Positions 4,946 through 25,295 are shown, numbered from the stretch's first letter. The stretch is 64,000 bases of DNA from an uncultured delta proteobacterium (GCA_963708295.1 CAVPSJ010000008.1:311432-375431); one strand, 5' to 3'. Notes: generated from the letters alone by a model not told the origin. Numbers and translations are program-made.

Positions 4946-4986
4946 CAGTGCGATTAACAGCAATCCAAAAAGATAGAGAAATATTG

Positions 4987-7064
4987 ATGAAAAGGCTCTT
5001 ACGGATATTTTTATGTGTCATCCTCCCTTGCAGCCTTTCCTATGCGAAGAATACAGTAAATATACAATCTTATATCCTTCGGAATAGGGTAGTCGTATTG
5101 GATCAGGTCTTAATGAAAAAAGCTCTCTATGTCTCTTTCTCATTCAGTGGGAGTATAAAACAACATGAAGATCTGAGTGTTCATGGACTTCTTCTAAACG
5201 GTGATAAGATCGTCTCTGAAACCTCTCTGAAGGCTTTTAGTGAAAATAACGGTAACCTCGTTTTTGACCTTCCTTATCAGATATCCGATGGTGAGTACAC
5301 GATAAAAATTGACGTTCTTACTAACAAGGGAAGTTTAGCGGGGACAGGATCTGTCGCTGTTAAAAGGTCTGCCTTAAAGAGTTACTTTTATCCGGAAAGT
5401 GAGGTTTCTGCTCGCGCTCTTGAAGAAATCCCCGTTAATGAAGGACTTGAAGAAGTCAGGCCGACGATCCATGATAAATCCGTAGGCTATATGATCTTTT
5501 CTCGATCTCCCCTCGAGTATGTTTTTCCTGGGAGGAAACCTAAAAAGTCCGAGATTATTGAGCATGTTATGATCAGAGTCGTTCGTAATGAATTTGAACC
5601 GTTTACCTTTTCGCTTTATCCTCTTCAAGACCTGGGGACGGTCAAAATATCGGTAACCGATTTAAAGAGTGCTAAAGAGATCATCTCTAAAAACAAAATA
5701 AGGGTTGCTTCCGTTGAAAGGGTACAGGAGACCATTGGATTGCCAGAAGGAAGATTCCTAGATTTGCCAACTCTAATCCGGCCGGGAAATCAGGTAAAAG
5801 TTGAGAGCGGTAAGTGCCAAAGATTTTGGCTGACCATCAGAATCGACGATAACGTTTTGCCCGGAGCTATATAAGGGTAGAATAACGATATTCCCTCAGC
5901 ATGGATTAGAAACATCGCTTCCTCTCGAAGTAACAGTGTTCGCCCATCTCTCTTGAGGACATTCCAGGGATCGATTATTTTATGTTAATGACGTACGAGT
6001 TTACAGAATTGACGATGCCTTGGAGTAGTGAAGAGAAAGAGAAAATCTATAGATCAGCTTGTCACATTCTCGAGGATTACAAAGAGCACGGGATGACCAC
6101 CCTTTGTTTGCATTCACCTTTTGTACTCATCACAAAGGAAGATGGCACGCCTAACCTTGAGGATATCTTTGCTGCTTTAAGAGCGGCAAAAGAAATTGGG
6201 TTTAAGGCACGGATTATATGGTATATGGGGCATCTTATTCAAACATCTAAGCCTAAACATCCGGGGAACATCATAAGTTTTGATAAGGGGGTTCATTTGT
6301 CGCGGCTAAAATATATCGTGGAAACCGTATCTCGGTATGCGAAGGAGCATGGTTGTCCTGAAGTTATTTTTTTGCCGATTGATGAACCGGGTGATTCGTA
6401 TCAGGACTTTCAGGATAAGCGCCGGGCCATCACAGCGGTTTTGCTCAAAGCAATAAAAGACTTAGGTGCCAAAACTATGCTTACGAGCGGTGACCATAAA
6501 CAATTTAGACCTGTTGATTATTTATGCTCTGGCAAAATGAATAAACAAGATTTAGATGAGGCACATAAAAGCGGTTCTGTTTACTGGTTATATAATAACG
6601 ACGTGACTACAAAATGCCTCAGTCCAGCTTATGCCAGATACATTTATGGCTATTACACCTGGATGAATCATGTGGATGGGATATCGTCCTGGACGTTCCA
6701 GAATACCCAGAATGCAAGGGGCCTGCCGGGACAGGCTGATGTTCATGGCAGCGATATCTATCTTGCGTACCCAGATCCGAACGGTCCCATCGCTACTCTT
6801 AGATGGGAAGCGATGAGGGAGGGGATAGATGATCATAAGCTTTTATATCAATTGGTGAAACGGATAAAAAAGCTGGAAGAAAAAGGAATCGATACATCCA
6901 AATATAAGGAATTTCTTTTGGGAATCGAGAACAAAGAGGGGACACCTGGCTGCCAAGAAAGAGACGATGACAAGTGGACTCCAACATTTTTCGAAGAAAG
7001 CAGGGATCATTTAATCTCAATGATTTTAGATGCAATGGCAAAATTAGACCGTTCCCAATCTTGA
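4987..7064 (+). CDS. Secreted GH123/DUF4091-like glycoside hydrolase, split by two apparent insertions (~5870, ~5941)
   Basis: Signal peptide MKRLLRIFLC..SLSYA; RNEFEPF, FWLTIRI..PG(AY)KG, IDEP, C-terminal LRWEAMREGIDD; the sequence between the two ORFs reads through in a shifted frame. Confidence 0.7.
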
Positions 7065-7111
7065 CCTGACAATCGTCATATTTTTGCGTATATGTCTTGA
7101 AGGAGATTTCT

Positions 7112-7384
7112 ATGGAACTTAATGAAATTAAAGAAATTACAAGAAAAATAGTTGTCGAAATCATTGCATCAAATAGCGAAACCGATGAGATACCAGCAAA
7201 ATTTGGTGATGATGATTCCTTAATTGATGGGGGTCTTATAGATTCTATTAGTTCAGTTCAATTGATCGAGGAATGCGTACTGAACTTCGGCGTCCTCATC
7301 CACCCCGCTGAACTTTCATTAGAAAATTTTGATACCATCAATAGAATTTGTGAGTTTATTCAATCAAAATTGGAAGAAAACTAA
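7112..7384 (+). CDS. Acyl/aminoacyl carrier protein (DltC-like)
   Basis: Acidic 90 aa; GLIDS phosphopantetheine site; FGV..ENFDTINRI tail; RBS AGGAG at 7101. Confidence 0.9.
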   Translation: MELNEIKEITRKIVVEIIASNSETDEIPAKFGDDDSLIDGGLIDSISSVQLIEECVLNFGVLIHPAELSLENFDTINRICEFIQSKLEEN

Positions 7385-7386
7385 CC

Positions 7387-9018
7387 ATGGAGCTAATTCG
7401 AGAGATCAGTCAAGTTTTTTCTCAACATAAGGGAAGAGCGGCAATTTCCCGTTACACTCCTCCGAATTCGTCGATGACTTTAACCTACGGTCAACTAGGG
7501 GAAAGAGTTGGAGAATTAGCCCAGTTCTTGCTGGAGCAGGGGATGCAGCCGGGTGACTTGGTTATGAGCTATATGACGAAGTCACTTGAACTGGTAGTAT
7601 CAATATTGGCTATCATGTTAAACGGGGGTGTGTGTAGTTCCTTTTACTCCAAACAAAATCCTCAGTATCCACTGAAGCTGCTTTCAATTGCGTATCCGAG
7701 ATTTCTTCTGTTGGATGAGAGCACATTAAGAAATATGAAGAAATCAATGAAAATAACTGGGTCAGAGAACCGGTATCCTGTATATATGAAATATTCTGAA
7801 TTCGAGGGGACAGCATTCGCGCAAGATCATCCTGGGAAGGCAATTTATATTTTGAGTGATCCAGCAAGCAAGAATGACGGCGGGAATGAAGTGCCAGCGA
7901 TTGATCATCGTTTGAACGAGGCCGCTTGGTGTCTGTTCACATCAGGTTCGACAGGTGTCCCGAAGGGTGTTCTTATATCGAGAGAAGATCTGTTGCGAAG
8001 GGCTATGACAGAGCGTGAGGATTATGAATTAACGGATCAAGACAATCTGTTAAGCTTGCTTCCCTTTTCATTCGATGTGGGCTTAAATCAACTCCTGTCG
8101 TGCATTTTATCCGGAGGCCATCTTGTGATTTTGAATTCATGGTTTCCAAAAGATATTTTAACAACGATTAGATCTCAAAGCATTACTGGAATTTCAGGCG
8201 TTCCATCCATATGGGCTGATGCAATCACCTATCCGAAAGAACCCGATTTTGAGCAAAACATTCGAACTTTAAAGTACATAACTGTTTCGGGAGGAGATCT
8301 TGCGAAAAATCAATTAGTGCGGCTAAGACAATACTTTGAAAATGTGAGGATATTTAAGACTTACGGACAGACCGAGACTTTTAGAAGCAGCATACTCAGG
8401 CCTTCCGATTTTGAAGGGAAGATGACCTCCGTTGGCCGTGCTGTCAAAGGAACGGAGGTGTTTATCCAAAACGACAAGGGCGAAGTCAATCCTCCAAACA
8501 TTGAGGGAGAGATTGTTCATCATGGCGTTGGGACAATGCTCGGGTATATTAATGATTTGGAAGGAACTAACGGAAAGCTGCGAGAGATTGTGAAACCAGT
8601 GAGGGGAACTGTGAAGGAGGGGAAATCGGTATTTACGGGTGACCGGGGGAGAATGGATGAAGAAGGGTATCTCTACGTGTTGGGCCGTGAAGATGGAATG
8701 ATAAAAACCTTAGGACACCGGGTTTATCCAAAGGAAATAGAAGGCTGTATACTGGAGCACAAGCATGTGAAGAATGCTGCCGTTGTCGGAATCATAGACG
8801 AACGGAAGGGACAAGCTATTATCGCAGAGGTTGTTGCCAATGAAGTCTTGGATAAGCCCAGCTTAATTGGGTTCTTAAGGGAACGATTACCATACTACAT
8901 GATTCCCAGCGAAATCAACTTCGTGGAACGCTTACCGATGACAGAAAATGGAAAGATAAAGTACACAACCATTAAGGAAAAATATGAGGAAAGAAGATTT
9001 CTACAAAGTCATTCCTAA
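7387..9018 (+). CDS. Stand-alone adenylate-forming enzyme (exosortase-A-associated acyl-CoA ligase / VinN-like)
   Basis: FTSGSTGVPKG, LPFSFDVGLNQ, TYGQTETFRS, FTGD, GREDGMIK, PYYMIP, NGKI. Confidence 0.85.
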   Translation: MELIREISQVFSQHKGRAAISRYTPPNSSMTLTYGQLGERVGELAQFLLEQGMQPGDLVMSYMTKSLELVVSILAIMLNGGVCSSFYSKQNPQYPLKLLSIAYPRFLLLDESTLRNMKKSMKITGSENRYPVYMKYSEFEGTAFAQDHPGKAIYILSDPASKNDGGNEVPAIDHRLNEAAWCLFTSGSTGVPKGVLISREDLLRRAMTEREDYELTDQDNLLSLLPFSFDVGLNQLLSCILSGGHLVILNSWFPKDILTTIRSQSITGISGVPSIWADAITYPKEPDFEQNIRTLKYITVSGGDLAKNQLVRLRQYFENVRIFKTYGQTETFRSSILRPSDFEGKMTSVGRAVKGTEVFIQNDKGEVNPPNIEGEIVHHGVGTMLGYINDLEGTNGKLREIVKPVRGTVKEGKSVFTGDRGRMDEEGYLYVLGREDGMIKTLGHRVYPKEIEGCILEHKHVKNAAVVGIIDERKGQAIIAEVVANEVLDKPSLIGFLRERLPYYMIPSEINFVERLPMTENGKIKYTTIKEKYEERRFLQSHS

Positions 9019-10196
9019 AGAAGAACTCAAGAATCTAGTCAATAAGATAGAGCTTCCTGCCTTTATATATTCTAAGGAGATTATCAGAAGAAAATATGAA
9101 GAATTATTGGATTGCCTTCCCAAGGGTTTTGAAATCCACTATGCCTTTAAGGCGAATCCGAACCAGGATGTTCTCGGATTCATTCGATCGCTTGGCGCGG
9201 GTGCTGATGTTGCATCCTTAGGGGAACTGCAGTTAGCAGTGGAGAAAGGGTATTCCATAGGGAAAATCGAATTCACTGGTCCTGGTAAAACCCTCGAGGA
9301 ATTATCATCGGCGATTGATCTTGGGATATCTTCCATAAACGCTGAGAGTGTTTCAGAAATCAAGAAAATTGTAGATATATCCAAGAGAAAAGGCAAGAAC
9401 GCCAATGTGGGAATACGAATTAATCCAATAATGAACGTCAAAAGGTTCGGCTATGAAAATGGCAGGGGATACTCAGTTTGGTATTATAGAAAATGAACTC
9501 GGGAATGCCTTTACTATCATTGAAAAAGAATCTAAGTATCTGAGATTCACAGGACTGCATATGCATTTGGGTTCTCAGTTCCTCGAGGCAGAGAAACTGA
9601 TTTCGAATTTCAGATTCATTCTTGAAAAAATATATGAGATCACAAACCAGTACAAAATAGAGCTGAAAAAGATTAATTTCGGTGGAGGATGGGGGATTGA
9701 CATATTTGGCAATAAACCGCCTCTCGATCTGCGGCTTGTCCATAGGAGCTTATCAGAACTATTTACAGATTCAAAATATAGGACGGTTTTTGAAAACACT
9801 CACTTTATCGTGGAGCCCGGCCGTTTCTTGGTAGCGGAATGTGGCATTTATGCCGTGAAAGTACTTTACAGAAAGAAAGGGTACAAAAAGGAATTTCTGG
9901 TTGTTAATGGAGGGATGCACCAAAACTATTTAGCAGCGGGTGGCATTGGTCAGGTGATTCGTAGAAACCTTGAAGCCGATGTCATGACAGATAATAATTA
10001 TTGTGAAGGGGTCGCCAAATACACCGTTGTGGGGTCTCTATGCATTCCGGATGATGTGCTCGGTTCTGAGCTTGAGTTACATTCAGAGATAAAGGAAGGA
10101 GATACTCTTCTTTTTCATAATTGCGGGGCATACGGTTATTCTGCAAGCCCTTTAAAGTTTTTGAGTCATGCTTTTCCAAGGGAAATCGCGATTTGA
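8984..10196 (+). CDS. PLP-dependent fold-III decarboxylase (BtrK/VinO-like, LysA superfamily), one apparent insertion at ~9440
   Basis: HYAFKANP (PLP Lys), HMHLGSQ, NFGGG, EPGRFLV, GGMHQNYLAAGGIGQVIRRN, VGSLC, GAYGYSASPLKFLSH; the frames join if one A is removed from AAAA at 9440-9443. Confidence 0.87.
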
Positions 10197-10234
10197 TGGC
10201 TGTATGAAGCTCGAGTTGGTTAGGAGGGGTTCGT

Positions 10235-11773
10235 ATGGAAACAATCATTGATCTTCTTGAAAGGAGTTTTTCTCTCCATAAGGCGAGGGTGGGGATAAGA
10301 ATTTACGATGACATGTGGACTTACGATGATCTGCAGAATCTGTCGAGTAAGGTATCAGGTTTTCTATTAAAAGCAGGGATCAAAAAGGGGGAAAGAGTCG
10401 TTGTCCTGATGAACAAGTCTATCTATTTGTACGCCGCGATTGTTGGAATTATGCGGGGCGGGGGAGTCTATGTGCCATTGGATGGAAGGACTCCATCTGC
10501 GAGAATAGCCAGGATATTAGAAGACGTTGAGCCGTTCTATGTTTTTATTGATCATCATTCTTTTAAAAACTATCAGGGAGCCCAACGCCTTGTGAAGAAT
10601 CAGTTTAAAGTGCTTTATTTAGATGATTGTGAAAACGAGCTTTATGAAAGAACAAGTTTTAGAGAGAAGTTGATAAAAGATAAGGAGAAATGTCCATCGG
10701 TCTCCTCAGAAGATTTAGCGTTAATATTACATACCTCCGGGTCGACGGGGGTGCCCAAGGGCGTCATGATATCACAGGGGAACTTATATAATATAGTAAA
10801 TTACACTATAAAAGCCTTTGAATATGGACCCGAAGAAGTAGGAAGCGCATTGAACGCAAGTTCTTTTGATATGTCAATGACGGACATGTTTTCAGTCTTA
10901 TGCTCAGGTGGAACGTTAGGTGTATATCCTGAAGAGTTGATATTTCCGAAGGATATATTGGACCTTACTTATAAGTACGGAATTACCAAAATGTGTTTGG
11001 TACCCTCCTCCCTGAGCTCGTTAGTTAATAGTAACCTAATTCAACCGGATTTACTGAATAGGCTTAAGGATGTCTTTTTAATTGGTGAGTTGATACCCGC
11101 CAATACGTTATTTACAATCATGGACATGTTACCTGGAACAAGGTTCCATAATTGGTATGGGCCGGCAGAAACAACCAATTATAATTCAAACCATACTTTT
11201 AGCAAGCGGTTAAACCGGCGGGCGAAAAATTTCCCCATTGGGTTTCCAATCGCAAGCAGTAAGTTCATTTTGGACAGAAAGGGTTTTGAAAATGAAAGGG
11301 GAAAAGGAGAGCTTCTCATTCTAGGGCCGCAGGTGGGATTGGGTTATTGGAATGATCCGGAAAAGACGAAAATTGTCTTCGGAGTCAATGAAAATGGAGA
11401 ACGATATTACAGAACAGGAGATATTGCTTCCTTTGACCCGAGAGTTGGGTACTTTATCCATGGTCGAAGGGATCATCAAATAAAGTTCAAGGGATATAGA
11501 ATTGAATTGAGTGAAATTGAACACATTGTGTCTCTGTTGCCTGTTGTTAAAGAGAACGTTGTTGCTCCCATTTATGAAAATGGCAGGGTCGAGGAACTGA
11601 GGCTCATTTACTCCGGTGAAGGGGATTGCGGAAAGGAGATTAAGAAGCACCTCATTAAACATCTGCCGAATTACATGATTCCAAAAACGATGATATCCGT
11701 TGAGGGCCTCCCCAAAAATCAGAATAATAAAATAGATAGGGTGTTAATCAAAAAACTGTATGGGGGGAAATAG
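10235..11773 (+). CDS. Stand-alone amino-acid adenylation enzyme (DltA/NRPS A-domain-like)
   Basis: GGVYVPLD, HTSGSTGVPKG, SFDMS, NWYGPAE, YRTGD, GRRDHQIKFKGYRIELSEIE, LPNYMIP, NKIDR. Confidence 0.9.
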   Translation: METIIDLLERSFSLHKARVGIRIYDDMWTYDDLQNLSSKVSGFLLKAGIKKGERVVVLMNKSIYLYAAIVGIMRGGGVYVPLDGRTPSARIARILEDVEPFYVFIDHHSFKNYQGAQRLVKNQFKVLYLDDCENELYERTSFREKLIKDKEKCPSVSSEDLALILHTSGSTGVPKGVMISQGNLYNIVNYTIKAFEYGPEEVGSALNASSFDMSMTDMFSVLCSGGTLGVYPEELIFPKDILDLTYKYGITKMCLVPSSLSSLVNSNLIQPDLLNRLKDVFLIGELIPANTLFTIMDMLPGTRFHNWYGPAETTNYNSNHTFSKRLNRRAKNFPIGFPIASSKFILDRKGFENERGKGELLILGPQVGLGYWNDPEKTKIVFGVNENGERYYRTGDIASFDPRVGYFIHGRRDHQIKFKGYRIELSEIEHIVSLLPVVKENVVAPIYENGRVEELRLIYSGEGDCGKEIKKHLIKHLPNYMIPKTMISVEGLPKNQNNKIDRVLIKKLYGGK

Positions 11774-11970: not shown

Positions 11971-12603
11971 ATGCGGATCATTATTAGGTTACTGAGATAT
12001 GTCTCAATAAAGCTGAAAGAAATAAATGAAGAGTATAAATACAACCCTTCTACAATTGCCGAAAAGTTTCGAAAACAAGGAGCTAAAATTGGAGAGAATT
12101 GTTCAATTCAGATTAACCGCTTAGGATCTGAGCCCTATCTTGTAGAAATTGGAAATAGCGTAGCGATAGCTATCGGCGTTAGATTTCTTACACATGATGG
12201 TGCAAGCTTCATCTTTAGGGATGAATTTCCTGCCCTTCGATATTTTGGGAAGATAGTCATTGAGGACAATTGTTTCATCGGGGCGCGTTCGATTATCTTA
12301 CCGGGCGTAAGGATTGGTAAGGGTTCTATAGTTGGGATGTCGTCAGTCGTTATCCGAGATGTTAAGCCGGGAAGTATCGTTTTTGGCAATCCTGCTATCC
12401 AGGTTTCCACAGTAGAGAAATACAGAGAACGATGTTTACAAGAATGGAAAAACCAAGGTTTAGATAAATTTAACCACCTTTTCGAAGGGAAAAATAAGTC
12501 CGAAGTGCAGGAGGTTATGGAATCGAAAGAATTCAGAGAGAAGTTAAAGGAACATTTGTTGTCAGTTGAACTTAAGAATGACGAGAGAAAGAAATATGCA
12601 TGA
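11971..12603 (+). CDS. Left-handed beta-helix (hexapeptide) O-acyltransferase
   Basis: GAKIGENC, FLTHDG, IVIEDNCFIGARSIILPGVRIGKGSIVG, GNPA. Confidence 0.9.
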   Translation: MRIIIRLLRYVSIKLKEINEEYKYNPSTIAEKFRKQGAKIGENCSIQINRLGSEPYLVEIGNSVAIAIGVRFLTHDGASFIFRDEFPALRYFGKIVIEDNCFIGARSIILPGVRIGKGSIVGMSSVVIRDVKPGSIVFGNPAIQVSTVEKYRERCLQEWKNQGLDKFNHLFEGKNKSEVQEVMESKEFREKLKEHLLSVELKNDERKKYA

Positions 12604-12648: not shown

Positions 12649-13836
12649 TTGAATATGCAGTTCCGCGAAAAGATAAACATATTAATAATCACTGATGTCT
12701 TCAAGAAAATAGCCGGATCAGAACGGAATATTATGCAGCTTTTACACGGAATGGATCAAACAAGATTTCATGTTTATGTTGCATGCTTTTATTCTGGCGA
12801 AGTTGCTCAAGCTATGAGGGCGGAAGGATTCCAAGTCTATGGTCTAAGACGGGGCGGGATATATTCTATTAAAGGAATGAAAAATATCATCTTCCTGTAT
12901 AAATTGATTCGGGGGGAAAAAATAGATCTTATTTTAACCTATCACGAAGGATCCGATTTCCTAGGTTTGGTCCTCTCAACTCTGTGTGCCGTTCCCATCA
13001 TCTCCAACAGGAGAGATATGGGATTTAAGACGAGACTTCCTCATCGAGTGGCCTATAGATTCCTCGGTAGATATTTTGATGGCGTCATCACCGTGTCAAA
13101 TGCGGTTAAGAACGAGCTCATCAATAAAGGCTGGTTCAAGGCAGGAAAGGTGTGGTCAATTCATAATGGAATCAATGTTGAAGGATATGCCGATGATGTG
13201 GACAGGGAATCGATAAAACAGTCCATTGGCATCGCACCTGGCAAGAATGTCGTCGGCGTAATCGGTAATATAAAGAGGATTAAGGGAATAAGATATTTTC
13301 TTCATGCGGCGTCATTAATCTGCGCAAAAAAACCTGATGTAGAATTTGTCCTGATTGGGTATGACTTAAAGGAAGCAGGAAATTCGCTGGCGGATATGAA
13401 GTTGCTTGCGAAACAGATGAAAATTTCCGATAAAATTCATTTTCTTGGAGAAAGGAACGACATCGCAGATCTCATATCCGTTTTTGATGTTGGTGTTATT
13501 TCGTCATTAAGCGAAGGATTCTCAAATGTGCTCTTGGAATACATGGCTTCTGCAAAGCCGGTGGTGGCAACGGATGTTGGTGGAAATAGAGAAGCGGTCG
13601 TCCATGGAGAAACGGGTCTGTTAGTGCCCTCTGAAAACGCTCAAAAATTGGCAGATGGGATAGAAGTGCTCTTAGAAAATAGAGAGATTGCCTTGAGGTA
13701 TGGATTGGCTGGGCGGGGGCGAGTGGAGAAAGATTTCAGCCTCAAGGGGATGATCGGAAAATATGAAAGGATTTGTGAGCACATGACAATTAAGAACGGA
13801 CCCCACTCCCGGTCTCGCGTCGGTTTAGAAGATTGA
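12649..13836 (+). CDS. GT4 glycosyltransferase
   Basis: AGSERN, RRDMGF, IHNGI, SLSEGFSNVLLEYMA, ATDVGGNREAV. Confidence 0.92.
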   Translation: MNMQFREKINILIITDVFKKIAGSERNIMQLLHGMDQTRFHVYVACFYSGEVAQAMRAEGFQVYGLRRGGIYSIKGMKNIIFLYKLIRGEKIDLILTYHEGSDFLGLVLSTLCAVPIISNRRDMGFKTRLPHRVAYRFLGRYFDGVITVSNAVKNELINKGWFKAGKVWSIHNGINVEGYADDVDRESIKQSIGIAPGKNVVGVIGNIKRIKGIRYFLHAASLICAKKPDVEFVLIGYDLKEAGNSLADMKLLAKQMKISDKIHFLGERNDIADLISVFDVGVISSLSEGFSNVLLEYMASAKPVVATDVGGNREAVVHGETGLLVPSENAQKLADGIEVLLENREIALRYGLAGRGRVEKDFSLKGMIGKYERICEHMTIKNGPHSRSRVGLED

Positions 13837-14900
13837 TCGAACCTTTGGAGATGGCTTGGCCTGCTATGGCAAAAAGAATTAAATATCTTATTCGAATGCT
13901 TTTTGGGGGATTATTTTTTTATTCCGGAACATTTCACATGATTCGCCTTTTCTACAGCCTTTGGGGCAGGCGCATTACGATCGTCACATACCATCGCATC
14001 ACGGATCGAAAGATGAATGAGATAGAGGCTTCCTTGCCGTTTCTATTTACCTCCCAACAGGTGTTTGAAAAACAGCTACTATTTTTTAAAGAATGTTACA
14101 AGGTTATTCCTCTCAAAGAGCTAGTGGAACGTGGAAGAAATGGCAAAGCTCCTTGGAATTCATTGATCATTACATTTGACGATGGATATGAGGATAACTT
14201 CCGGAATGCTTATAAGAGCTTAAGTAAAATGCACTTACCGGCAACCTTCTTCATAACGGCAGATAGAATTGGCAAGGACAATGTCAAACCCTATTGGTGG
14301 GACAGATTGTACTACTACTTAAGAGAGATTCAAAAGCGGGAGGATAGGGAATTCGGTGACGGAGTGAAAGGAGAATTATCTCCTATTTATGAAGAGTTTA
14401 AGAATAATGCATCCCATTTGTTTGCGAGGATGAATAGGCAGGGAACGGATGAAATTGAGAGGCTACTGGATAGAATTCAGGAGAACTATCAAATAGACAA
14501 CGAAAAAGTATACCGGGAAAATAGAATGTTGAATTGGCAGCAGATTTCTGAAATGAGTCAAAATCATGATTTTGGCTCGCATACCTGCAGCCATCGAAAC
14601 CTGCTTCGATTGAGCGATGATCAGAAGTACCACGAGATAGTTGAATCTAAAATGATCATTGAAAAGTTCCTGGGGAGGGAAGTGAGTGCTTTTTCTTGCC
14701 CGGCAGGTCACATGGATGAGGGAATTGAAAGGTTTGTAAAAAAAGGTGGATATGAATTTGCCATGACGACAAAACCGGGGATCAATAGGATGAATCATAG
14801 ATATCGTTTGAAAAGAATCAACATTTGGGAAGGCACCAGTTTATCCTTAAATGGGACCTTTTCGAAGGGTTATTTGTCTTTGATAATGCTAGGTTTTTAG
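13833..14900 (+). CDS. Polysaccharide deacetylase (CE4/NodB)
   Basis: TYHRI, ITFDDGYEDN, GSHTCSH. Confidence 0.9.
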   Translation: MIEPLEMAWPAMAKRIKYLIRMLFGGLFFYSGTFHMIRLFYSLWGRRITIVTYHRITDRKMNEIEASLPFLFTSQQVFEKQLLFFKECYKVIPLKELVERGRNGKAPWNSLIITFDDGYEDNFRNAYKSLSKMHLPATFFITADRIGKDNVKPYWWDRLYYYLREIQKREDREFGDGVKGELSPIYEEFKNNASHLFARMNRQGTDEIERLLDRIQENYQIDNEKVYRENRMLNWQQISEMSQNHDFGSHTCSHRNLLRLSDDQKYHEIVESKMIIEKFLGREVSAFSCPAGHMDEGIERFVKKGGYEFAMTTKPGINRMNHRYRLKRINIWEGTSLSLNGTFSKGYLSLIMLGF

Positions 14901-15302
14901 ACCTTGGAGATGAATCACGGAATAAGGGATGATGAGTTTAGAGAACATGACGGAGGGTGCCTTCATTCAAATTCGAGCCCGTTCCTACGTAAGGTAATAG
15001 CGCGCGACGGGCAAACGCAGAAAGAAATGATCATAGTAATCCTGTGGGTCGCGCTTCTATTGGGCATTGAGCAAGTGGCAGGAAAGATAAACGCTCCGTG
15101 CAAATAGCCAAAGAACAAGAGATAATCCGAACCCTTCCAGAATACCAGGCCCGGTTTGCCTGTGTCTCGAACGACCACCCTTTCCACCCAGCCTAGCTGC
15201 AACAGGTCATCGTGGCGTTTTCCATCCTATTCGGATGGATATGAAACCAAGAGATGTCAGTTGCGACGCCCGGAAAATGATGAAGGGAATAGGAGGAGAA
15301 AG

Positions 15303-16364
15303 ATGAGTGAGCTGACAACGAATGCCCCCCAATCAAAGAAGAGCCAGAAGATTACCCCTGATCCGAGAAGAAGCTCGAATCAAAAGATGGCAATCATGGA
15401 TGTAACGTTCAGAGAGAGTGTCCTTTGCCGGAAGCAAATTGACTTGGAGGCTGTGCTTAGCACGATAAGGAAGCTCTCGGAGACGGGCATCACGTACATT
15501 GAAATTGGATACCTTAAGTTCGGCTCAGGATCCAATTCTCTTTTGAACTATTCGCCGGATTACATCAAGAAGTGCTACGAAATCTGTAAGGGGAAGGTAA
15601 AGATAGGAGCGATGATTCACCCGGACGATTTCTCTCCTGAAAGATACACTGAGGATGTAGTTAGGCAGCTATCATTAATTAGGGTCACAAGCACCCCCGG
15701 GAACATGCACAAGATCAAGGATATTTGCAGTTATTTTAAACCCCTCGGGGTAAGAGTCAGTATGAACTTGCTCCGGGCATCAAAGTTTTCCGACGAGCAA
15801 TCGCTCGATTATTGTGCAAGGGCGCAGGAATTTGGCGCTGATTTCTTTTACATCGCTGACTCGAATGGTCATTTTTTGCCCCATCAAGTGAGGAGTCGCA
15901 TCGTCGCGCTAAAAGAGCATTTTCCGGAAATGACAATAGGATTTCACCCGCATGATAACTTAGGATTGGCGGCAGTGAATGCGATAGAAGCAGTGCAAGG
16001 TGGAGCGGATATTGTTGACAGTTCCCTCCTGGGGTATGGGAAAGGGGCTGGAAATCTTCGAACAGAGCTATTCCCCTTGGTCTTAGGGAGACTGACGGGA
16101 GAGTACAAGATAGAAGAAATTTATACGCTATTCAAAGTCGCACGACACTTTTACCATAATGTCGTATCGCCTAATACCTTTGAGGAGGAGTACAAATTTT
16201 CATTGTATGGCCTTTTCGATATCGATCTCGATGTAGACAAGAAGATATGTGAAGTGAGCGATGTGAAAGGGCTCGAAGACCATGAACTTGCCTTTGACTT
16301 GATCAGGCAATCGAATGGAAACATCGGCAACCTGGACAGCCTGCTTAAGAAATTAACATCGTAG
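15303..16364 (+). CDS. DRE-TIM metallolyase, 4-hydroxy-2-oxovalerate aldolase-like
   Basis: RBS AGGAGG; DVTFRES (variant of DxTLRDG), IEIGY, YIADSNG, GFHPHDNLGLA, GYGKGAGNLRTE. Confidence 0.78.
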   Translation: MSELTTNAPQSKKSQKITPDPRRSSNQKMAIMDVTFRESVLCRKQIDLEAVLSTIRKLSETGITYIEIGYLKFGSGSNSLLNYSPDYIKKCYEICKGKVKIGAMIHPDDFSPERYTEDVVRQLSLIRVTSTPGNMHKIKDICSYFKPLGVRVSMNLLRASKFSDEQSLDYCARAQEFGADFFYIADSNGHFLPHQVRSRIVALKEHFPEMTIGFHPHDNLGLAAVNAIEAVQGGADIVDSSLLGYGKGAGNLRTELFPLVLGRLTGEYKIEEIYTLFKVARHFYHNVVSPNTFEEEYKFSLYGLFDIDLDVDKKICEVSDVKGLEDHELAFDLIRQSNGNIGNLDSLLKKLTS

Positions 16365-16440
16365 ACCGCCAGGATCATTACCCAGCAATCGAGCGACGTC
16401 ATGTCGTAATCTTGGGGGGCCTAAGAACTTAAAGGGAGGT

Positions 16441-17160
16441 ATGAAGATGGAGAAACGACCAAGTTTTGCAAAGATGCATCCTGGCCCTGGGTTTAGGATC
16501 AAGGAGAGCTTTGAGAGGATAGACCCCGAACGGATAGCGAAACTTCTTGACTATTCAACACCCGATATTTCCGATCAATTAAATCGACTCTATGCTGTTA
16601 ATCCAGAAATTAGATGTTTAAGCGGGAAACACCATAAGCTGTGCGGTCAGAGTTGTACGGTTAAAGTGTTCCCGGCGGATAACCTGATGGTTCATAAGGC
16701 TTTAGACATCGCTAAACCGGGAGATGTAATCGTGGTTGATGCTGGAGCGTCACCCATGAACGCTGTGATCGGGGATGTCATCTGTATGAAAGCTAAGCAC
16801 AGAGGGATTGCTGGATTTGTTATAGACGGGTTTATCAGGGACTTACCCGCAGTCTCGGACCTTGATTTTCCTGTTTTCGCAAGGGGCACCACTGCGATTG
16901 GGCCGCTCCATAATGGACCCGGCGAAGTGAACTATCCCGTATGCTGCGGGGGTGTCGTTGTCAACCCCGGGGATATTGTTGTTGCCGATGGAGGTGGCGT
17001 TATCATTATCCCGAGTGACATTCTCCTGGCATTGTCGGAGAGGTTAGAGACGGATAAGAAAAGAAAACGGGATTACTTGGATTCGGTGCAAAGAGGAGAG
17101 TTTTCGAATGAATGGGTAGAAGATATTTTACGAAACGGAAAGTGTGAAATTGTGAAATAA
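16441..17160 (+). CDS. RraA / HMG-aldolase family protein
   Basis: TPDISD, TVKVFPADNLMVHKALD, GDVIVVDAG, IRD, VNPGDIVVAD. Confidence 0.88.
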   Translation: MKMEKRPSFAKMHPGPGFRIKESFERIDPERIAKLLDYSTPDISDQLNRLYAVNPEIRCLSGKHHKLCGQSCTVKVFPADNLMVHKALDIAKPGDVIVVDAGASPMNAVIGDVICMKAKHRGIAGFVIDGFIRDLPAVSDLDFPVFARGTTAIGPLHNGPGEVNYPVCCGGVVVNPGDIVVADGGGVIIIPSDILLALSERLETDKKRKRDYLDSVQRGEFSNEWVEDILRNGKCEIVK

Positions 17161-18427
17161 ATGGCTGCGGGCGATTTCAAAAACAAAAATATTAATTTAC
17201 CTCCTGTCATCATATTGGGGGGTAGTACAAATGCGATATCTATAGCGAGGAGTCTAGGAAGACAGGGGATAAAGGTCTATGCATTGAATTCTCACGAATC
17301 ATACATACGATTATCAAGATTCAGCGAGTGGATAAAGACGGATTCGGATAATGGAACTGACGAAGCGTGGGCACGGTTTCTTCTGAGTTCAGAATCCGAT
17401 CATCTTAAAGACGCAGTCTTACTCACGGGTTCTGATTTGGGAATTGAGTTTATAGCAAAAAACAGGGAGAAATTATTGAAGAAGTTTATTCTTGATATAT
17501 CGAAAAAAGAGGTTCAACTATGTTTACTCAATAAACTGTGTACGTATGAAAAAGCTTTGGAGGCCGGGGTACCCATCCCGAAATTCTGGAGAGTGGAAAA
17601 GCTGGAACAGATCTTAATGCATGAAAAGGAATATATGTATCCATTGATCTTAAAGCCCATTTACTCACATAAATTTGTAGAGGTGTTTAACAGCAAGTTC
17701 TTTGTGGTTAATAGTTTTGACGAGCTTTTGAATGCCTATTCGAAAATCGATCGATTCGGTATTGAAGTCATGCTTGTGGAAAAAATCCTCGGGCCTGATG
17801 ATAGATATTGCAGTTATTATACGTATTTAGACGAAAACGGCGAAGCGCTTTTCGATTTTACGAAGAGGATTATCCGGAGATACCCCTGTAATCAAGGCGG
17901 TGCCTGTTATCACATCACCGACTGGAATCCCGAGGTACGAGATTTGGGTTTAAAATATTTCACTCACGTGGGGCTGATCGGGCTTGCAAATATTGAGTTC
18001 AAAAGAGATGATAGGGATGGAAAATTGAAACTCATTGAATGCAATGCAAGATTCACGGCAGCAAACTGCCTTGTCGCAGAAAGCGGATTTGACCTTGCCC
18101 TGTTTGTCTATAATCGCCTCGTCGGACGGATTCAGCCAACGTTAAAAGGGAAGACGTTATAAGGAAGGGTTAAGACTTTGGTATCCTGTAGAGGATTTCT
18201 TGTCATTCAAAGAACTCAGAGGAAGAGGCGAGCTTAGTTTCATGGGATGGATAAAGAGCATCATGCATCCTCAGGTATTGCCGTATTTCCGGTGGTATGA
18301 CCCCATACCCACGATTGTTTTTGGATCGAAAAGAATATTCCGGTTCATTAAGAAAGGAATACCTCGTTTCCAATTTATTCAGAAAAATCATCGGAGAAAT
18401 AGATTTGAAGGTGAGGCAAGGAAGTAA
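17161..18427 (+). CDS. ATP-grasp carboxylate-amine ligase (D-aspartate-ligase-like), one apparent insertion at ~18157
   Basis: IARSLGRQGI, YPLILKP, EKILG, IEFKRDDRDGKLKLIECNARF; removing one T in ACGTTAT continues to ...DPIP and a stop at 18427. Confidence 0.83.
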
Positions 18428-18633
18428 AAGGGTCAAGTCTTGTTTTATCTTCATGAACTGTTCCGGTGGCGATCTCATGGCAAAGCGGAAGATCAAGCGT
18501 GTGCTTTTCCGAGGGGCTGCGGGAGCGCCCCGGGATCGAAGCTAAATGCCCGGCAGCCGTAGCCCGGGCCGAGTTTTCAGAGGCCTAGATGGAAACACTG
18601 ATGACCGAGGGCGACCATGGGAGGAGGGCTTAG

Positions 18634-19751
18634 ATGAGATTTTTGTTTCGCTCACGACCGGTGCTGACTGGGCTTCGCGTCCTGTCGTACGGCCAGAGGC
18701 TGAGGCGGGTACTGTTGCGACGAGGCGACGGATTCGACGCCGAGAGCAGCCGCGGCTTCCACCGTGAAGTTTGGCGGACTGCTGCGGCCCGGCTTGGTGG
18801 CGGAGATTCGTGAGCTGCCCGGGGACTTCTTGGAGGTGCGTTACGGGCAGCGGTTCACCCGTATTAAGAAGTGGTGGGTCATGCTCGACGACCCGGTGAC
18901 ACTGAGCTTGGCTGGGAACAAGGCTGCCGTTCATGCGCTGTTGATGGAGGAAGGACTACCAGTGCCAGCCCACCTAACCTATACGCTCGACCAGATCGGG
19001 AGGGCGTGGGACTTTCTGCGCGGCCAGGGCACGCCTTGCGTGGTAAAGCCTGCGTCCGACACGGGCGGGGGACACGGCGTCACGACCGGAGTTGAGACAC
19101 GCTGGCAGTTAGCCCAGGCCTCAGCCGTCGCTGCGACCTTGGGGCATGAGCTGTTGATAGAGCGCCAGATCGAGGGGGACAACTACCGTCTGTTGTATCT
19201 GGACGGCGTGCTGATCGACGCCTTACGCCGGGGCGGACCCACTGTGATCGGCGATGGCCGTTCCAGCATCGGCGAACTGATCCGCCGCGAGAACCTGGAG
19301 CGGGCCCGGGGCAGGCGCGCTGTGCTCGGTCCGATCACGATTGACCTTGACTGCCGGTCCACTCTGCGACGGGCTGGCCTCTCGTTGCGGTCCGTTCCTG
19401 CTGCTGACCAGACGGTGAGAGTGAAGATGGCGATCAATGAGGGCTCCGAGCGCGATAATCAAACAGTCCTCGGGCAGATCGGCGCATCACTGGCCCAGCA
19501 GGGAGCACGAGCTGCTGCAATCGTTGGAGCGCAGGCTGGCTGGCGTGGACGTGATAACGAAAGACCCAACTTTGCCTCTCGAGGCCTCGGGGGCGATCAT
19601 CGAGGTCAATACAACGCCCGGGATAAGATTCCACTACATGGTCTGGAATCAAGAACAGCGGGTGGAGGTGGCGGTCCCGATCATGCGCTACCTGCTGGGC
19701 TTGGGCACGTTCGAAGAGCCTCAGGGGGACTTGAATATGGAGGTACGGTGA
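18634..19751 (+). CDS. Cyanophycin-synthetase/GshF-like ATP-grasp ligase, two apparent insertions (~18798, ~19535)
   Basis: RBS GGAGGAGG and ATG at 18634; GNK..H.LL..GLPVP, VVKP..GGGHGVT, IERQIEGDNYRLL, VIGDG, AGVDVIT, IIEVNTTPG across three frames. Confidence 0.78.
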
Positions 19752-20825
19752 GCACGGAGCTAGACGAGACGACGCCCCTTCGTTACTCCGGATGCGCATA
19801 CCCGCTTCGTCTTAGACGTGATGCGAGCAACGGGTGCGAGCAGTGAAGACAGCGAGGTGGTGGCGGAAGGCCTTTTGTGGGCGGATCTGCGGGGGCGCCA
19901 CACCCAGGGCTTGACTCGGCTGCCAAACTTTGTCGAGCGTCTCTCGAAGGGATTGATTCGCTCACCCGCAGCCATGGTCTGGCAGGAGGTCGGGCCAGCC
20001 GCCGCTCTGCTCGACGCCGGACACGGACTCGGCCACGTGGCCAGTCGGCTGGCCATTCTGAGGGCTGTCGAGCTGGCGCGTGCCCAGGGTGTGGGGCTGG
20101 TCGCGGTTCGCCACAGCAACCACTTCGGGGCGGCGGGCTACTACTGCGCGATGGCAGCTGCGGCGGGCTGCCTGAGCTTCAACTACACGAATGCATTCCC
20201 AAAGGTAGCACCCCACGGCGGCAGAAAGCCAGTGCTGGGCACTAATCCAATCGCCTTCGGCTGCCCGACACGCGGCGCCGGCCCGCTACTTGTAGACCTG
20301 TCCACCGGCGCACTCTCCGGAGGGGAAGCGCGCTCGACGGGCGACAAAGGAGGACGACTGCCTCCAGGCGTAGCTCTCGATGCGGAGGGACGTCCTACCC
20401 AGGATCCGGCTGCGCTCAAGATGGGTTGCCTGCTACCGGTTGGCGGTGCGCGCGGTTTCGCGCTTGGTCTGATGGTCGAAGTCTTGAGCGGTATACTGAC
20501 CGGATCAGCAGTTGGCAAGGAGGTCGGATCGCTGTTCTCCACGTGGGATCGACCTGTTGACGTTGGCCACCTCTTCATCGCGGTTGACATCGAGCGCTTC
20601 CTCCCGCTATCGGAATTCCTGGATCGACTCGACAGACTCCTGGCCTGGATCGCCGCCACACCGCCGATGGAAGGGTTTGAGGCGGTTCGCATCCCCGGCG
20701 AGATCAGAGCGCAGCTTGCCGAGAAGTATGCCCGGGAAGGCATCCCTGTTGCACAGGAATCAGTGGCGCCGCTCATGCAGCTTGCGCAGCGTTTTAATCT
20801 CCCTTTGCCCTGGAACCATGAATGA
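19748..20825 (+). CDS. Ldh_2 family (ComC/AllD/DpkA-type) NAD(P)H oxidoreductase; start uncertain (19748 with a shift, or 19818)
   Basis: ADLRGRHTQG, DAGHGLG, HSNHFGAAGYY, GTNPIAFG, GFALGLMVEVL, RIPGE. Confidence 0.88.
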
Positions 20826-21044
20826 GGGACATAGGGATCAGGACAGAAGCGTTAAATCTCGAGGGCCTGGTGGCCGTTCTGTTTCCGTGTGTTTTTGCAT
20901 GCTGCTCTATCGGAGAAGGTAGCGGATGAACTTCCCTCGCTCGTCCACGAGTATGGCCGGTGGCGAAATGATAGATCCTCCCAGGAGCATCGGCCGGTTT
21001 TGGGACCTCAAAAATGGGTTAGGATCAGTACGGAGAGAGGCCTG

Positions 21045-21944
21045 ATGGATAAAACGGGAGTCTTTTATCCAGGAGAAATGGGAACTGCACTGTCCCGGAA
21101 ACTTGTGCGTGCTGGGTTTGAAGTTTTGTCGTGCGTTTCCGGCAGAAGCGAGAGGACGCGGATAAACGCTGAAAACAGCGGGATTACTCTTAAAAAAAAT
21201 ATCGAGGAAGTCATTGCGGAGAGCGGAATAATATTTTGCCTTGTACCGCCAATTCATGCCGTAGATGTTGCTGAGCAGGTGTCGGACACGATGCGCAAAA
21301 CGAGGAAGTACCCTTTGTATGTTGACTGCAATTCGGTGGGACCGAGTACCATGCGGAAGATAGAATTGGTGATAAGAGGATGTGGTGGTCAGATAATAGA
21401 CGGTGTGTTTATTGGGAGTGCTTCATTGCTTGAATCCAAGACGACCCTTTACTTAAGCGGGGAAAGGGCAGGGGAGCTTGCGCGATTATTGGAGCCTGCG
21501 CTTAAAGTGATTTCCTTGGGAGGAAAGGTGGGTGACGCCGCTGCATTCAAGATGTGTTTTTCAAGTTTCAACAAAGGTCTGGTCGCTCTGTTTCTTGAAA
21601 TTATAAGTGCGGCTGAAAGGGTTGGGAGGAGAGAAATGCTGCTCCATAGCTTGGAGGATTTCTATCCAGGCACTGTCGAAACCATATGCCGTCTTCTTCC
21701 CAGCTATCCGATGCATTGTGAAAGAAGAATCCAAGAAATGGAAGAATTAGTATCATTCTTGCGCGGGTTGGGGCAGGTACCAGCCATGTCAGTTGGCATT
21801 TGTTCCGTTCTTGAATCCCTCAGAGAAATATTTGTGGATCCCATTGAGAAAAAGGGCAAAGGTAGACGCTGGACATTTAATGAAATGCTCGAAATATGTT
21901 CAGCGAGAGGCTTGCTAAGAGACGGTGGGCCAAAGCGATTGTAA
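21045..21944 (+). CDS. NAD(P)-dependent oxidoreductase (6PGD/HIBADH-like with DUF1932-type C-terminus)
   Basis: PGEMG, GRSERT, SLVPP-like CLVPP, YVDCNSV, AAFKMC..FNKG, RRIQEMEE. Confidence 0.8.
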   Translation: MDKTGVFYPGEMGTALSRKLVRAGFEVLSCVSGRSERTRINAENSGITLKKNIEEVIAESGIIFCLVPPIHAVDVAEQVSDTMRKTRKYPLYVDCNSVGPSTMRKIELVIRGCGGQIIDGVFIGSASLLESKTTLYLSGERAGELARLLEPALKVISLGGKVGDAAAFKMCFSSFNKGLVALFLEIISAAERVGRREMLLHSLEDFYPGTVETICRLLPSYPMHCERRIQEMEELVSFLRGLGQVPAMSVGICSVLESLREIFVDPIEKKGKGRRWTFNEMLEICSARGLLRDGGPKRL

Positions 21945-22053
21945 GTTTTAAAAAGTTTGTAATGACCTTAAGGGAAAAACAACTAGCATCGCTATCGCAT
22001 GTAGAATAATTAAATGTCCGCGATTTCACGGAGGCAGAGTCTAAATAGCTAAA

Positions 22054-24959: not shown

Positions 24960-25295
24960 GGGACTCGGCTTGTCGAAATGAGGGGATCTCATTCAAGTTA
25001 CAGGATCAACTGTCCGATGGACCCAAGAGTGATCGTGTTGTATTGGACCTCTGTCGATGGGTCGGAGGTAGTCTCTCGGGTGATATTATACGCCTGGCTT
25101 CCGCAGATGCCGGCAGTGCAGGCCTCCGGGGAGGGAAAGCCTTCCTTTGCTTACGGTCAATTGCTCGACATTTCGGATGGAGTTTACGGCACTGTAAGAG
25201 AAAAGCAGTAAATAGACAATGGGGAGTGCCTTTTTAATTTAAGCCCACCCCGCTCTTTTTGATGTCCGGCACGCCATTGGATTTATCAGAAAAAA

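Follow-up and report, generated by a model that had tools for sequence, protein, structure and literature searches.

A predicted carrier protein-dependent route to decarboxylated aminoacyl groups in a polysaccharide locus of an uncultured deltaproteobacterium

Four close-packed genes on the plus strand of a 64,000-nucleotide stretch of DNA from an uncultured delta proteobacterium (GCA_963708295.1 CAVPSJ010000008.1:311432-375431; here called the window, with positions counted from its first letter) encode a stand-alone carrier protein, a first adenylate-forming enzyme (A1), a pyridoxal phosphate (PLP)-dependent fold-III decarboxylase and a second adenylation enzyme (A2). The gene content, family relations, motifs and neighbourhoods of this cassette were computed, and from them we infer all the chemical steps, and likewise substrate and acceptor, of what is, with a probability somewhat better than even, a carrier-dependent pathway that makes a decarboxylated aminoacyl group and decorates the polysaccharide of the surrounding locus with it. 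The side-chain carboxyl of an acidic (Asp- or Glu-like) alpha-amino acid would be adenylated by A1, which would then attach the residue as a thioester to the carrier, a small DltC-like protein, through its phosphopantetheine arm; from the residue still held on the carrier the decarboxylase, which is BtrK-like and PLP-dependent, would strip off the free alpha-carboxyl to leave a beta-alanyl- or gamma-aminobutyryl-carrier; A2 would add a second amino acid, either by loading the same carrier or by acylating the new amine as VinM does; and the acyl group would finally be passed to a sugar, in the window most likely via an adjacent hexapeptide-repeat acyltransferase, at an amine set free by a neighbouring glycosyltransferase (GT4) and CE4-deacetylase pair.

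On-carrier decarboxylation in the service of glycan decoration appears to be the best reading of the cassette because of the kinship of the decarboxylase to BtrK, the Asp and Arg residues kept in A1, the carrier protein found in all 23 loci that pair an A1-like gene with the decarboxylase, and the DltB-like MBOAT of sister loci. The available parts of PMC11350588 and PMC11284099 describe the type III PLP decarboxylases BtrK, FlvO, CtaF and VinO as acting on carrier-bound, side-chain-tethered Asp or Glu. Loading onto an acyl carrier protein (ACP) followed by decarboxylation had already been proposed in the initial annotation, which was made from the sequence alone, and this chemistry fits BtrK as the nearest solved relative, the Asp of the 'FD' motif in 18 of 18 A1-type sequences and the carrier in 23 of 23 loci.

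The cassette and its locus

The map of open reading frames (ORFs) agrees with the four same-strand genes as first annotated, with the decarboxylase appearing as two ORFs. The carrier protein, DltC-like and 90 aa long, is encoded at 7112-7384 from an ATG at 7112 (the longest ORF begins with a TTG at 7097); A1, a stand-alone enzyme and a divergent relative of TIGR03098, follows at 7387-9018; the whole decarboxylase gene spans 8984-10196 in two ORFs that lie in different frames; and the stand-alone, DltA/NRPS-like A2 occupies 10235-11773. The ACP and A1 genes are separated by 2 nt, the A1 and decarboxylase genes overlap by 35 nt, and 38 nt lie between the decarboxylase gene and A2.

The surroundings are those of a Wzx/Wzy-type polysaccharide locus, with several GT4 and GT2 genes, two CE4 deacetylases, DegT and PglF-like sugar-modifying enzymes and a priming transferase, and glycan genes around the cassette as well as around the related loci uphold the exopolysaccharide-locus setting that had been assigned to it. 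No ketosynthase (KS), acyltransferase (AT) or condensation domain was found among the 53 window ORFs scanned, which bears out the earlier remark that no polyketide synthase (PKS) or nonribosomal peptide synthetase (NRPS) is in view. Markers associated with exosortase A (XrtA) do occur in the window, all of them below their cut-offs: TIGR03015 scores 227 against 324, TIGR03018 170 against 231, stp1 208 against 317, stp2 160 against 409 and PEP_O_lig_1 76 against 188. The XrtA gene itself lies on another contig of the genome, C15, and not beside the locus; it scores 236.6 bits, above the cut-off of 208.

The decarboxylase and its relatives

The decarboxylase matches Orn_Arg_deC_N and Orn_DAP_Arg_deC in Pfam. 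Its N-terminal piece (8984-9496, plus strand, 170 aa), which holds the PLP-binding barrel, covers positions 10-160 of TIGR03099 at 126.1 bits, and its C-terminal piece (9453-10196, plus strand, 247 aa) covers positions 157-396 at 204.3 bits; the cut-off of 478.45 is not reached, and L025 and L026 (related loci are designated L and a number), which belong to the same clade and are intact, likewise stay under it with scores of 346 and 350. The fold-III assignment of the initial annotation is thus supported by Pfam and TIGR03099, whereas its single intact gene is not, the coding sequence lying in two frames because of an extra T that had been overlooked. For the C-terminal piece the top database homologue, P0005, is an intact protein of 403 aa that is 98% identical to it. 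Compared with proteins in the PDB, P0005 aligns end to end (residues 12-402) with BtrK (7ru7/2j66) at 227 bits and E 3e-66, and the next match, the best of the diaminopimelate decarboxylases, follows at 142 bits, 85 below BtrK. By these scores the decarboxylase is predicted to be of the BtrK type.

How widespread is this enzyme together with a ligase? Species-representative genomes were scanned with an alignment of 19 decarboxylase homologues, which gave 80 loci onto which the window proteins were then mapped. An A1-like gene is present in 23 of the 80, upstream of the decarboxylase and on the same strand wherever ORFs were mapped, and these ligase-plus-decarboxylase loci span at least 11 phyla; the other 57 are LysA-like genes plus two short or odd contigs. 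A quick maximum-likelihood tree, in which the A1-linked rows are the 23 loci and P0005 (the latter labelled from the synteny of the window itself), places all 24 A1-linked decarboxylases within one 26-row group (SH-aLRT 83). A separate LysA-like gene of the genome itself, on contig C14, matches TIGR03099 over its full length at 227 bits and groups with 49 LysA-like rows that lack a neighbouring A1. Within the A1-linked group, one clade of 18 rows (SH-aLRT 99) contains L040 and L046, the two members that were checked, which score above the TIGR03098 cut-off and just below that of TIGR03099; the other, of seven rows (SH-aLRT 100), consists of P0005 and L023, L024, L025, L026, L027 and L029.

The order ACP-A1-decarboxylase-A2-hexapeptide acyltransferase-GT4, with or without the CE4 deacetylase, recurs in L023 and L024, both from metagenome-assembled genomes (MAGs) of Nitrospirota, and in L028, from a Syntrophales MAG. 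Among metagenome contigs, the full arrangement is found in L106 and parts of it in L105 and L108, and L109 looks like the record of L023; the homologues that carry names come from MAGs of Thermodesulfobacteriota, Syntrophales, Nitrospirota and Smithellaceae. The related loci, too, are glycan loci, with GT2 and GT4, Wzx, Wzy, DegT, AsnB-like and deacetylase genes, and the canonical ones hold Acetyltransf_6 or Acetyltransf_9 GNATs amid GT, Wzy, Wzx, DegT and AsnB genes. One locus of the canonical clade, L045 from a betaproteobacterial MAG, has the carrier-ligase-decarboxylase trio beside an XrtA priming transferase; the trio is followed there by an ORF of 2427 aa (L045:11306-18589) in which AMP-binding, PP-binding, KS and AT domains, a second PP-binding stretch and a class-III aminotransferase are joined.

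A1 and the carrier protein

A1 matches the AMP-binding family over its full length (195 bits, Pfam), and against TIGR01733, a model of amino-acid adenylation, it reaches 220 bits. Its best NCBIfam match is TIGR03098, at 362.1 bits against a cut-off of 592.35, and as the decarboxylase pieces also remain below their cut-off, the window copy falls outside the curated TIGR03098 and TIGR03099 families. That these two are nonetheless the best NCBIfam matches agrees with the link between such a pair and exosortase A that the initial annotation had pointed out. All 18 aligned A1-type sequences keep the motif SFD(A/V)G..NQ, whose Asp is the equivalent of the substrate-amine-binding Asp235 and which in the window reads SFDVGLNQ, just as first quoted. 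They equally keep TE(T/A)FRS (TETFRS in the window), with an invariant Arg three residues past the A5 Glu, in the region of GrsA 330/331. VinN, as described in the available part of PMC11253843, binds 3-methylaspartate as a beta-amino acid via D230, K330 and R331. The invariant Arg of A1 fits a substrate with a free carboxylate, such as an Asp or Glu tethered by its side chain, and on these motifs A1 is predicted to load the carrier protein with an acidic amino acid.

Kinship of A1 and A2 to VinN, DltA and similar enzymes was judged from the ranks of PDB bit scores. A1 reaches 107.5 bits with VinN (3wvn), about 113-118 bits with HitB, IdnL1 and CmiS6, and up to 151 bits with single-module NRPS chains; the entries scoring about 113-118 bits comprise 5jjp/5jjq as well as 7dq5 and its relatives, the last of which are annotated 'b-aminoacyl-ACP synthetase' and correspond to HitB according to a table in the available part of the review PMC11253843. 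The label 'macrolactam-type', originally given to the cassette, therefore does not hold as a statement of family membership: A1 is nearer to ordinary NRPS A domains than to VinN, A2 is nearest to DltA, and no VinK-type acyltransferase or PKS was found in the window.

The carrier protein matches PF00550 at 23.6 bits, which makes it a weak but clear PP-binding protein, and its best NCBIfam matches, all below cut-off, are the OlsHI ACP and DltC. The Ser of the phosphopantetheine site lies in GLIDSISS (GGLIDSISS; GGLIDSISSVQLIEE), which includes the GLIDS motif noted at the outset, and is kept in all nine carrier proteins that were aligned, that of the window and eight from related loci. A hidden Markov model (HMM) of the carrier matches each of the 23 A1-plus-decarboxylase loci, and 15 of 15 among the loci outside its building set. 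Within the window this HMM matches only 7070-7381, so that a second carrier protein was not found there; Pfam matches were likewise absent for six small window ORFs (24978-25211, 18200-18427, 18297-18545, 18546-18767, 2486-2821 and 14963-15202).

Transfer step and acceptor

Which enzyme might hand the acyl group on? A gene of the acyltransferase type is found near A2 in nine of nine loci with enough flank, and directly after it in eight of them. In the window, L105, L106, L023/L109 and L028 this gene encodes a hexapeptide-repeat acyltransferase with a left-handed beta-helix (PF00132); the window protein (11971-12603, plus strand) is syntenic with A2, is 64-89% identical to its counterparts in L023/L109, L028, L105 and L106, and also has counterparts near A2 in L024 and L110. 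The gene directly after A2 in L024, L111 and L113 encodes a weakly matching NMT_C-like protein of the GNAT fold. The exception is L110, where a DUF2334 protein and a small ORF follow A2 and two hexapeptide acyltransferases come next. The hexapeptide acyltransferase at 11971-12603 is the only candidate for a transfer enzyme in the window. A more specific assignment as an LpxA/LpxD-like user of acyl-ACP was considered and is weakened by solved relatives that depend on CoA and by the Atlas, which gives only generic hexapeptide acyltransferase clusters. The sole MBOAT of the genome, on contig C13 (L185:7277-9704, minus strand), was rejected as a DltB-like partner: it is AlgI-like, stands beside an AlgX-like SGNH gene and is broken into three overlapping frame pieces.

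The sister loci offer other arrangements. In L025, L026 and L027, all of the window's clade, a DltB-like MBOAT (TIGR04091, 175-180 bits) adjoins the trio. In L029, from an Actinoplanes isolate, one uninterrupted ORF (L029:6685-8322) just 5' of A1 and the decarboxylase joins an Acetyltransf_6 domain (FemAB-like GNAT) to a C-terminal PP-binding domain; that genome is high in G+C, and an internal start for the carrier is therefore possible.

As for the acceptor, the hexapeptide acyltransferase gene of the window is followed on the plus strand by genes for a GT4 glycosyltransferase (12649-13836) and a CE4 polysaccharide deacetylase (13833-14900), each with Pfam and NCBIfam matches. The pair is syntenic 3' of the cassette in L024 and L106, at 51-75% identity for the glycosyltransferase (GT4a) and 46-73% for the deacetylase, and GT4a is also present in L023, L028 and L110. 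The conserved position of the two genes suggests a de-N-acetylated sugar as the acceptor, and the pair may free the sugar amine that is then acylated.

Evidence to the contrary and the state of this copy

Several observations weigh against the proposed pathway. The nearest solved relatives of the hexapeptide acyltransferase are CoA-dependent (QdtC at 50.7 bits, CatB, and the maltose and galactoside acetyltransferases), which does not favour an ACP as the donor and makes the transfer step the weakest link of the scheme; among the window ORFs no MBOAT, GNAT or BtrH-like transferase was found. PDB scores reveal no special sequence affinity of A1 or A2 to VinN or to other solved enzymes for beta-amino acids, and the specificity positions of A1 were placed by motif anchors, consistent with an alignment to LgrA, rather than by direct alignment to VinN. 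A biochemical datum for any member of the family was not found in the literature. A counterpart of the cassette was not found by a TIGR03099 search in 40 sampled relatives, 14 of them of the same genus; each has one LysA-like match (about 190-240 bits), and G027 also has a weaker second one of 141 bits. Finally, the decarboxylase is frameshifted in the assembly and two further genes of the locus, GH123-like and AsnB-like, are split, at the same time as four long housekeeping genes of the genome (rpoB, rpoC, dnaE and secA, about 15 kb of coding sequence) are unbroken, so that real decay of the locus is possible.

The lesion in the decarboxylase can be located precisely. Around 9438 the window reads AACGTCAAAAGG where P0005 reads NPIMNAKGSAMKMAGDTQFG (N-A-K-G-S at the break point), which places one extra T, and with it a +1 frameshift, at 9438 on the plus strand; the true continuation of the C-terminal piece starts near 9439 in its own frame. 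Logan contigs from four runs of related populations were consulted, with cover of the 5-kb stretch that is mostly patchy or nil, and only one of them bridges the break: a contig of run X1 (355 nt, 9170-9525, depth 2.24), which has four other differences from the window and lacks the base at 9438. The source reads were not found, since no public run contains at least half of the sampled words of the stretch, the best reaching 0.44.

Is the cassette then a dead remnant, its frameshift real and the polysaccharide locus decaying in the population? The chance of this is, in our estimate, just short of even. The extra base lies outside any homopolymer, and the locus contains other broken genes. The GH123-like gene directly 5' of the cassette, which is syntenic with it in L023 and L024, is split into two pieces in different frames (4948-5874 and 5982-7064) that match positions 2-295 and 334-684 of a single open frame of 696 aa in L024. 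Similarly, the AsnB-like amidotransferase is divided between different frames into a GATase piece (32510-33058, 182 aa) and an Asn_synthase piece (33063-34364, 433 aa), and the only MBOAT gene of the genome, on C13, is split as mentioned. The four housekeeping genes, which served to check for indels throughout the assembly, run without a break. Set against this are the near-identical public contig that bridges 9438 without the extra base, even if it is a single contig of depth 2.24, and the halves of the decarboxylase, which are otherwise 98% identical to the intact P0005 and carry no other lesions; moreover, the assembly, with its 20 contigs, 91% completeness and 5.6% contamination, makes consensus errors plausible in loci that vary between strains. 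Either the pathway is inactive in this strain, or the frameshift was introduced by assembly. The bridging contig and the otherwise 98% identical intact homologue incline us slightly towards an error or a very recent mutation. In any case, decay would bear on the activity of the cassette in this strain and not on its nature.

The second adenylation enzyme

A2 matches the AMP-binding family over its full length (208 bits, Pfam) and scores 300 bits to TIGR01733; the best named family is DltA (TIGR01734, 265 bits, cut-off 560), in keeping with its first description as a second DltA-like enzyme. It carries FDMS, with the Asp235 equivalent, and the A10 lysine; the orthologue in L024 has FS at the FD position. 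A2 is confined to the sublineage of the window, where six of seven informative loci have an orthologue (56% identity or more) after the decarboxylase; the canonical loci are without it.

Could A2 act as VinM does and, instead of loading the carrier, acylate the free amine that the aminoacyl-carrier bears after decarboxylation, the polysaccharide then receiving a dipeptidyl group such as Ala-beta-Ala? One carrier and two A enzymes do share an operon here, as is the case for VinL, VinN and VinM in the account given by the available part of PMC11284099, A2 retains the Asp of the FD motif, and the place of its orthologues after the decarboxylase would suit such a step. Nevertheless, we regard this dipeptide logic as improbable. 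The nearest solved relatives of A2 are the DltA enzymes, which load carriers (155-179 bits in the PDB comparison; 7dq5 reaches 115 bits), and among 71 A2-like loci from metagenomes that are further removed (27-34% identity; 60 of the 71 had at least 400 nt of downstream flank), 29 show the arrangement of DltA and DltC, with a carrier gene within 1.2 kb. In L110:4-2933 two A2-like genes stand in tandem, followed by DUF2334, a 73-aa ORF, two hexapeptide acyltransferases and a GT4 gene, and no decarboxylase was found in the 1.39 kb upstream of them. A role as a protecting group would, furthermore, have no obvious use without a PKS. The DltA relatives and the nearby carrier genes thus favour, as far as such comparisons go, an A2 that loads a carrier over one that forms an amide like VinM.

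Lastly, the database names might be right, A1 being an acyl-CoA or fatty-acyl ligase and the decarboxylase acting on free diaminopimelate or ornithine, to give a lipid or polyamine substituent or simply chemically unrelated genes, and it is true that the NCBIfam list of A1 holds many acyl-CoA ligase models (PRK06187, long-chain-fatty-acid-CoA ligase, 254 bits), that the decarboxylase halves match lysA at 113 and 130 bits (NCBIfam) and that many homologues are named 'diaminopimelate decarboxylase' by JGI, yet this is very unlikely, given that BtrK outscores all diaminopimelate decarboxylases by 85 bits, that the genome has its separate LysA-like gene, that the NRPS-type FD motif of A1 is invariant in the family and accompanied by 220 bits to TIGR01733, that each of the 23 loci has a carrier protein, and that the ORFs of A1 and the decarboxylase overlap by 35 nt.

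Other genes of the window

Further along the locus, the deacetylase is followed at 15156-18162 by genes for an HMGL-like aldolase, an RraA-like aldolase/decarboxylase and an ATP-grasp enzyme; an HMGL-like gene also lies 3' of the cassette in L106, at 86% identity. The products of these three genes might provide or alter the acid destined for the carrier. G+C content rises to 0.54-0.58 over 18000-22000, compared with about 0.41-0.44 on either side, and this stretch contains a cyanophycin-synthetase-like ATP-grasp gene (18764-19846), an Ldh_2 dehydrogenase gene (19818-20825) and a DUF1932/NAD-binding gene (20889-21944). This stretch may have entered the polysaccharide operon as an insertion from elsewhere. 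At the head of the operon, an antiterminator paralogue (NusG/RfaH/LoaP-like, 2110-2481) aligns with the RfaH model, which has 159 positions, over 45-155 only, and its N-terminal part seems to be absent from the ORF. The locus also encodes a third adenylate-forming enzyme, at 31021-32346, which is PaaK/coenzyme-F390-synthetase-like with NCBIfam scores of 102-107 bits, all below cut-off.

Implications

What might the wider family of carrier, ligase and decarboxylase do? A broader proposal, which we put forward tentatively and consider doubtful as it stands, is that the trio installs beta-alanyl or gamma-aminobutyryl groups (in the sublineage of the window possibly dipeptidyl ones) on exopolysaccharides, a cationic, Dlt-like modification of charge on the surface glycans of Gram-negative and other environmental bacteria, with delivery modules that are interchangeable: a DltB-like MBOAT, a carrier-fused GNAT or a hexapeptide acyltransferase. 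If this were true, a chemistry so far known only from the starter units of antibiotics would be in use on surface glycans, and TIGR03098 and TIGR03099, markers named solely for their association with exosortase A, would acquire a testable chemistry. A new class of positively charged substituents would then be predicted on the polysaccharides of environmental biofilms, and floc formation, metal binding and resistance to cationic agents would be affected, as they are by D-alanylation in Firmicutes. With its frameshifted decarboxylase and an apparently uncultured host, the copy in the window is a poor exemplar; the sister loci with DltB-like or carrier-fused GNAT partners hint at how the acyl group is delivered.

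Comparison with known systems

The closest catalogued counterpart is the exosortase A system-associated pair of TIGR03098 (acyl-CoA ligase) and TIGR03099 (pyridoxal-dependent decarboxylase), with which the cassette shares the order carrier-ligase-decarboxylase, the polysaccharide context and the motifs of A1. It differs in that its decarboxylase belongs to the separate seven-row sister clade, in the addition of A2 and in the location of XrtA on another contig. A full-text search (supplements excluded) found no paper on the function of the two families, and in Haft 2006 (PMC1569441) the words decarboxylase, ligase, acyl carrier and acyl-CoA are all absent.

The butirosin enzymes BtrI, BtrJ and BtrK bear a different set of similarities: no solved structure is closer to the decarboxylase than BtrK, both systems have a stand-alone carrier, and the product of the butirosin pathway, according to the available part of PMC11350588, decorates a sugar-based molecule. 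By contrast, the loader in the cassette is an ANL (AMP-binding) enzyme whereas BtrJ is an ATP-grasp ligase; two ATP-grasp genes do lie 5-7 kb downstream (17161-18162 and 18764-19846); synteny with the cassette does not extend to them in L023, L024 or L106. Transfer enzymes of the BtrH/BtrG type were not identified in the window, and the acceptor would be a polysaccharide and not an aminoglycoside.

The Vin and Flv pathways (VinN/FlvN, VinL/FlvL, VinO/FlvO and VinM) comprise the same parts, namely an ANL loader, a stand-alone carrier, an on-carrier PLP decarboxylase and a second A enzyme, and the loaders are further alike in the Asp that binds the amine and in their beta13-beta14 loop, which holds a basic residue, as far as the A1 positions set by motif anchors and LgrA allow the comparison. 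They differ in that A1 scores only 107.5 bits to VinN, below many ordinary A domains, that A2 is nearest to DltA, and that no VinK acyltransferase, VinJ peptidase or PKS (no Acyl_transf_1, no ketoacyl-synt) was found in the 53 scanned window ORFs. The Dlt system (DltA, DltC, DltB and DltD), finally, resembles the cassette in its DltA-like A2, its DltC-like carrier and the donation of an aminoacyl group from a carrier to a surface polymer, as it would occur here, and the likeness extends to L025, L026 and L027, which place a DltB-like MBOAT beside the trio; unlike Dlt, the cassette stays below the equivalog cut-offs, adds a decarboxylase and a second loader, and has no MBOAT in the window. Judged by its sequence, the cassette resembles the Btr, Vin and Flv systems in the predicted on-carrier decarboxylation and Dlt in the predicted aminoacylation, and belongs to none of them. 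What is known of it is the catalogued exosortase A-associated pair; what is new is a sister clade with an added second ligase.

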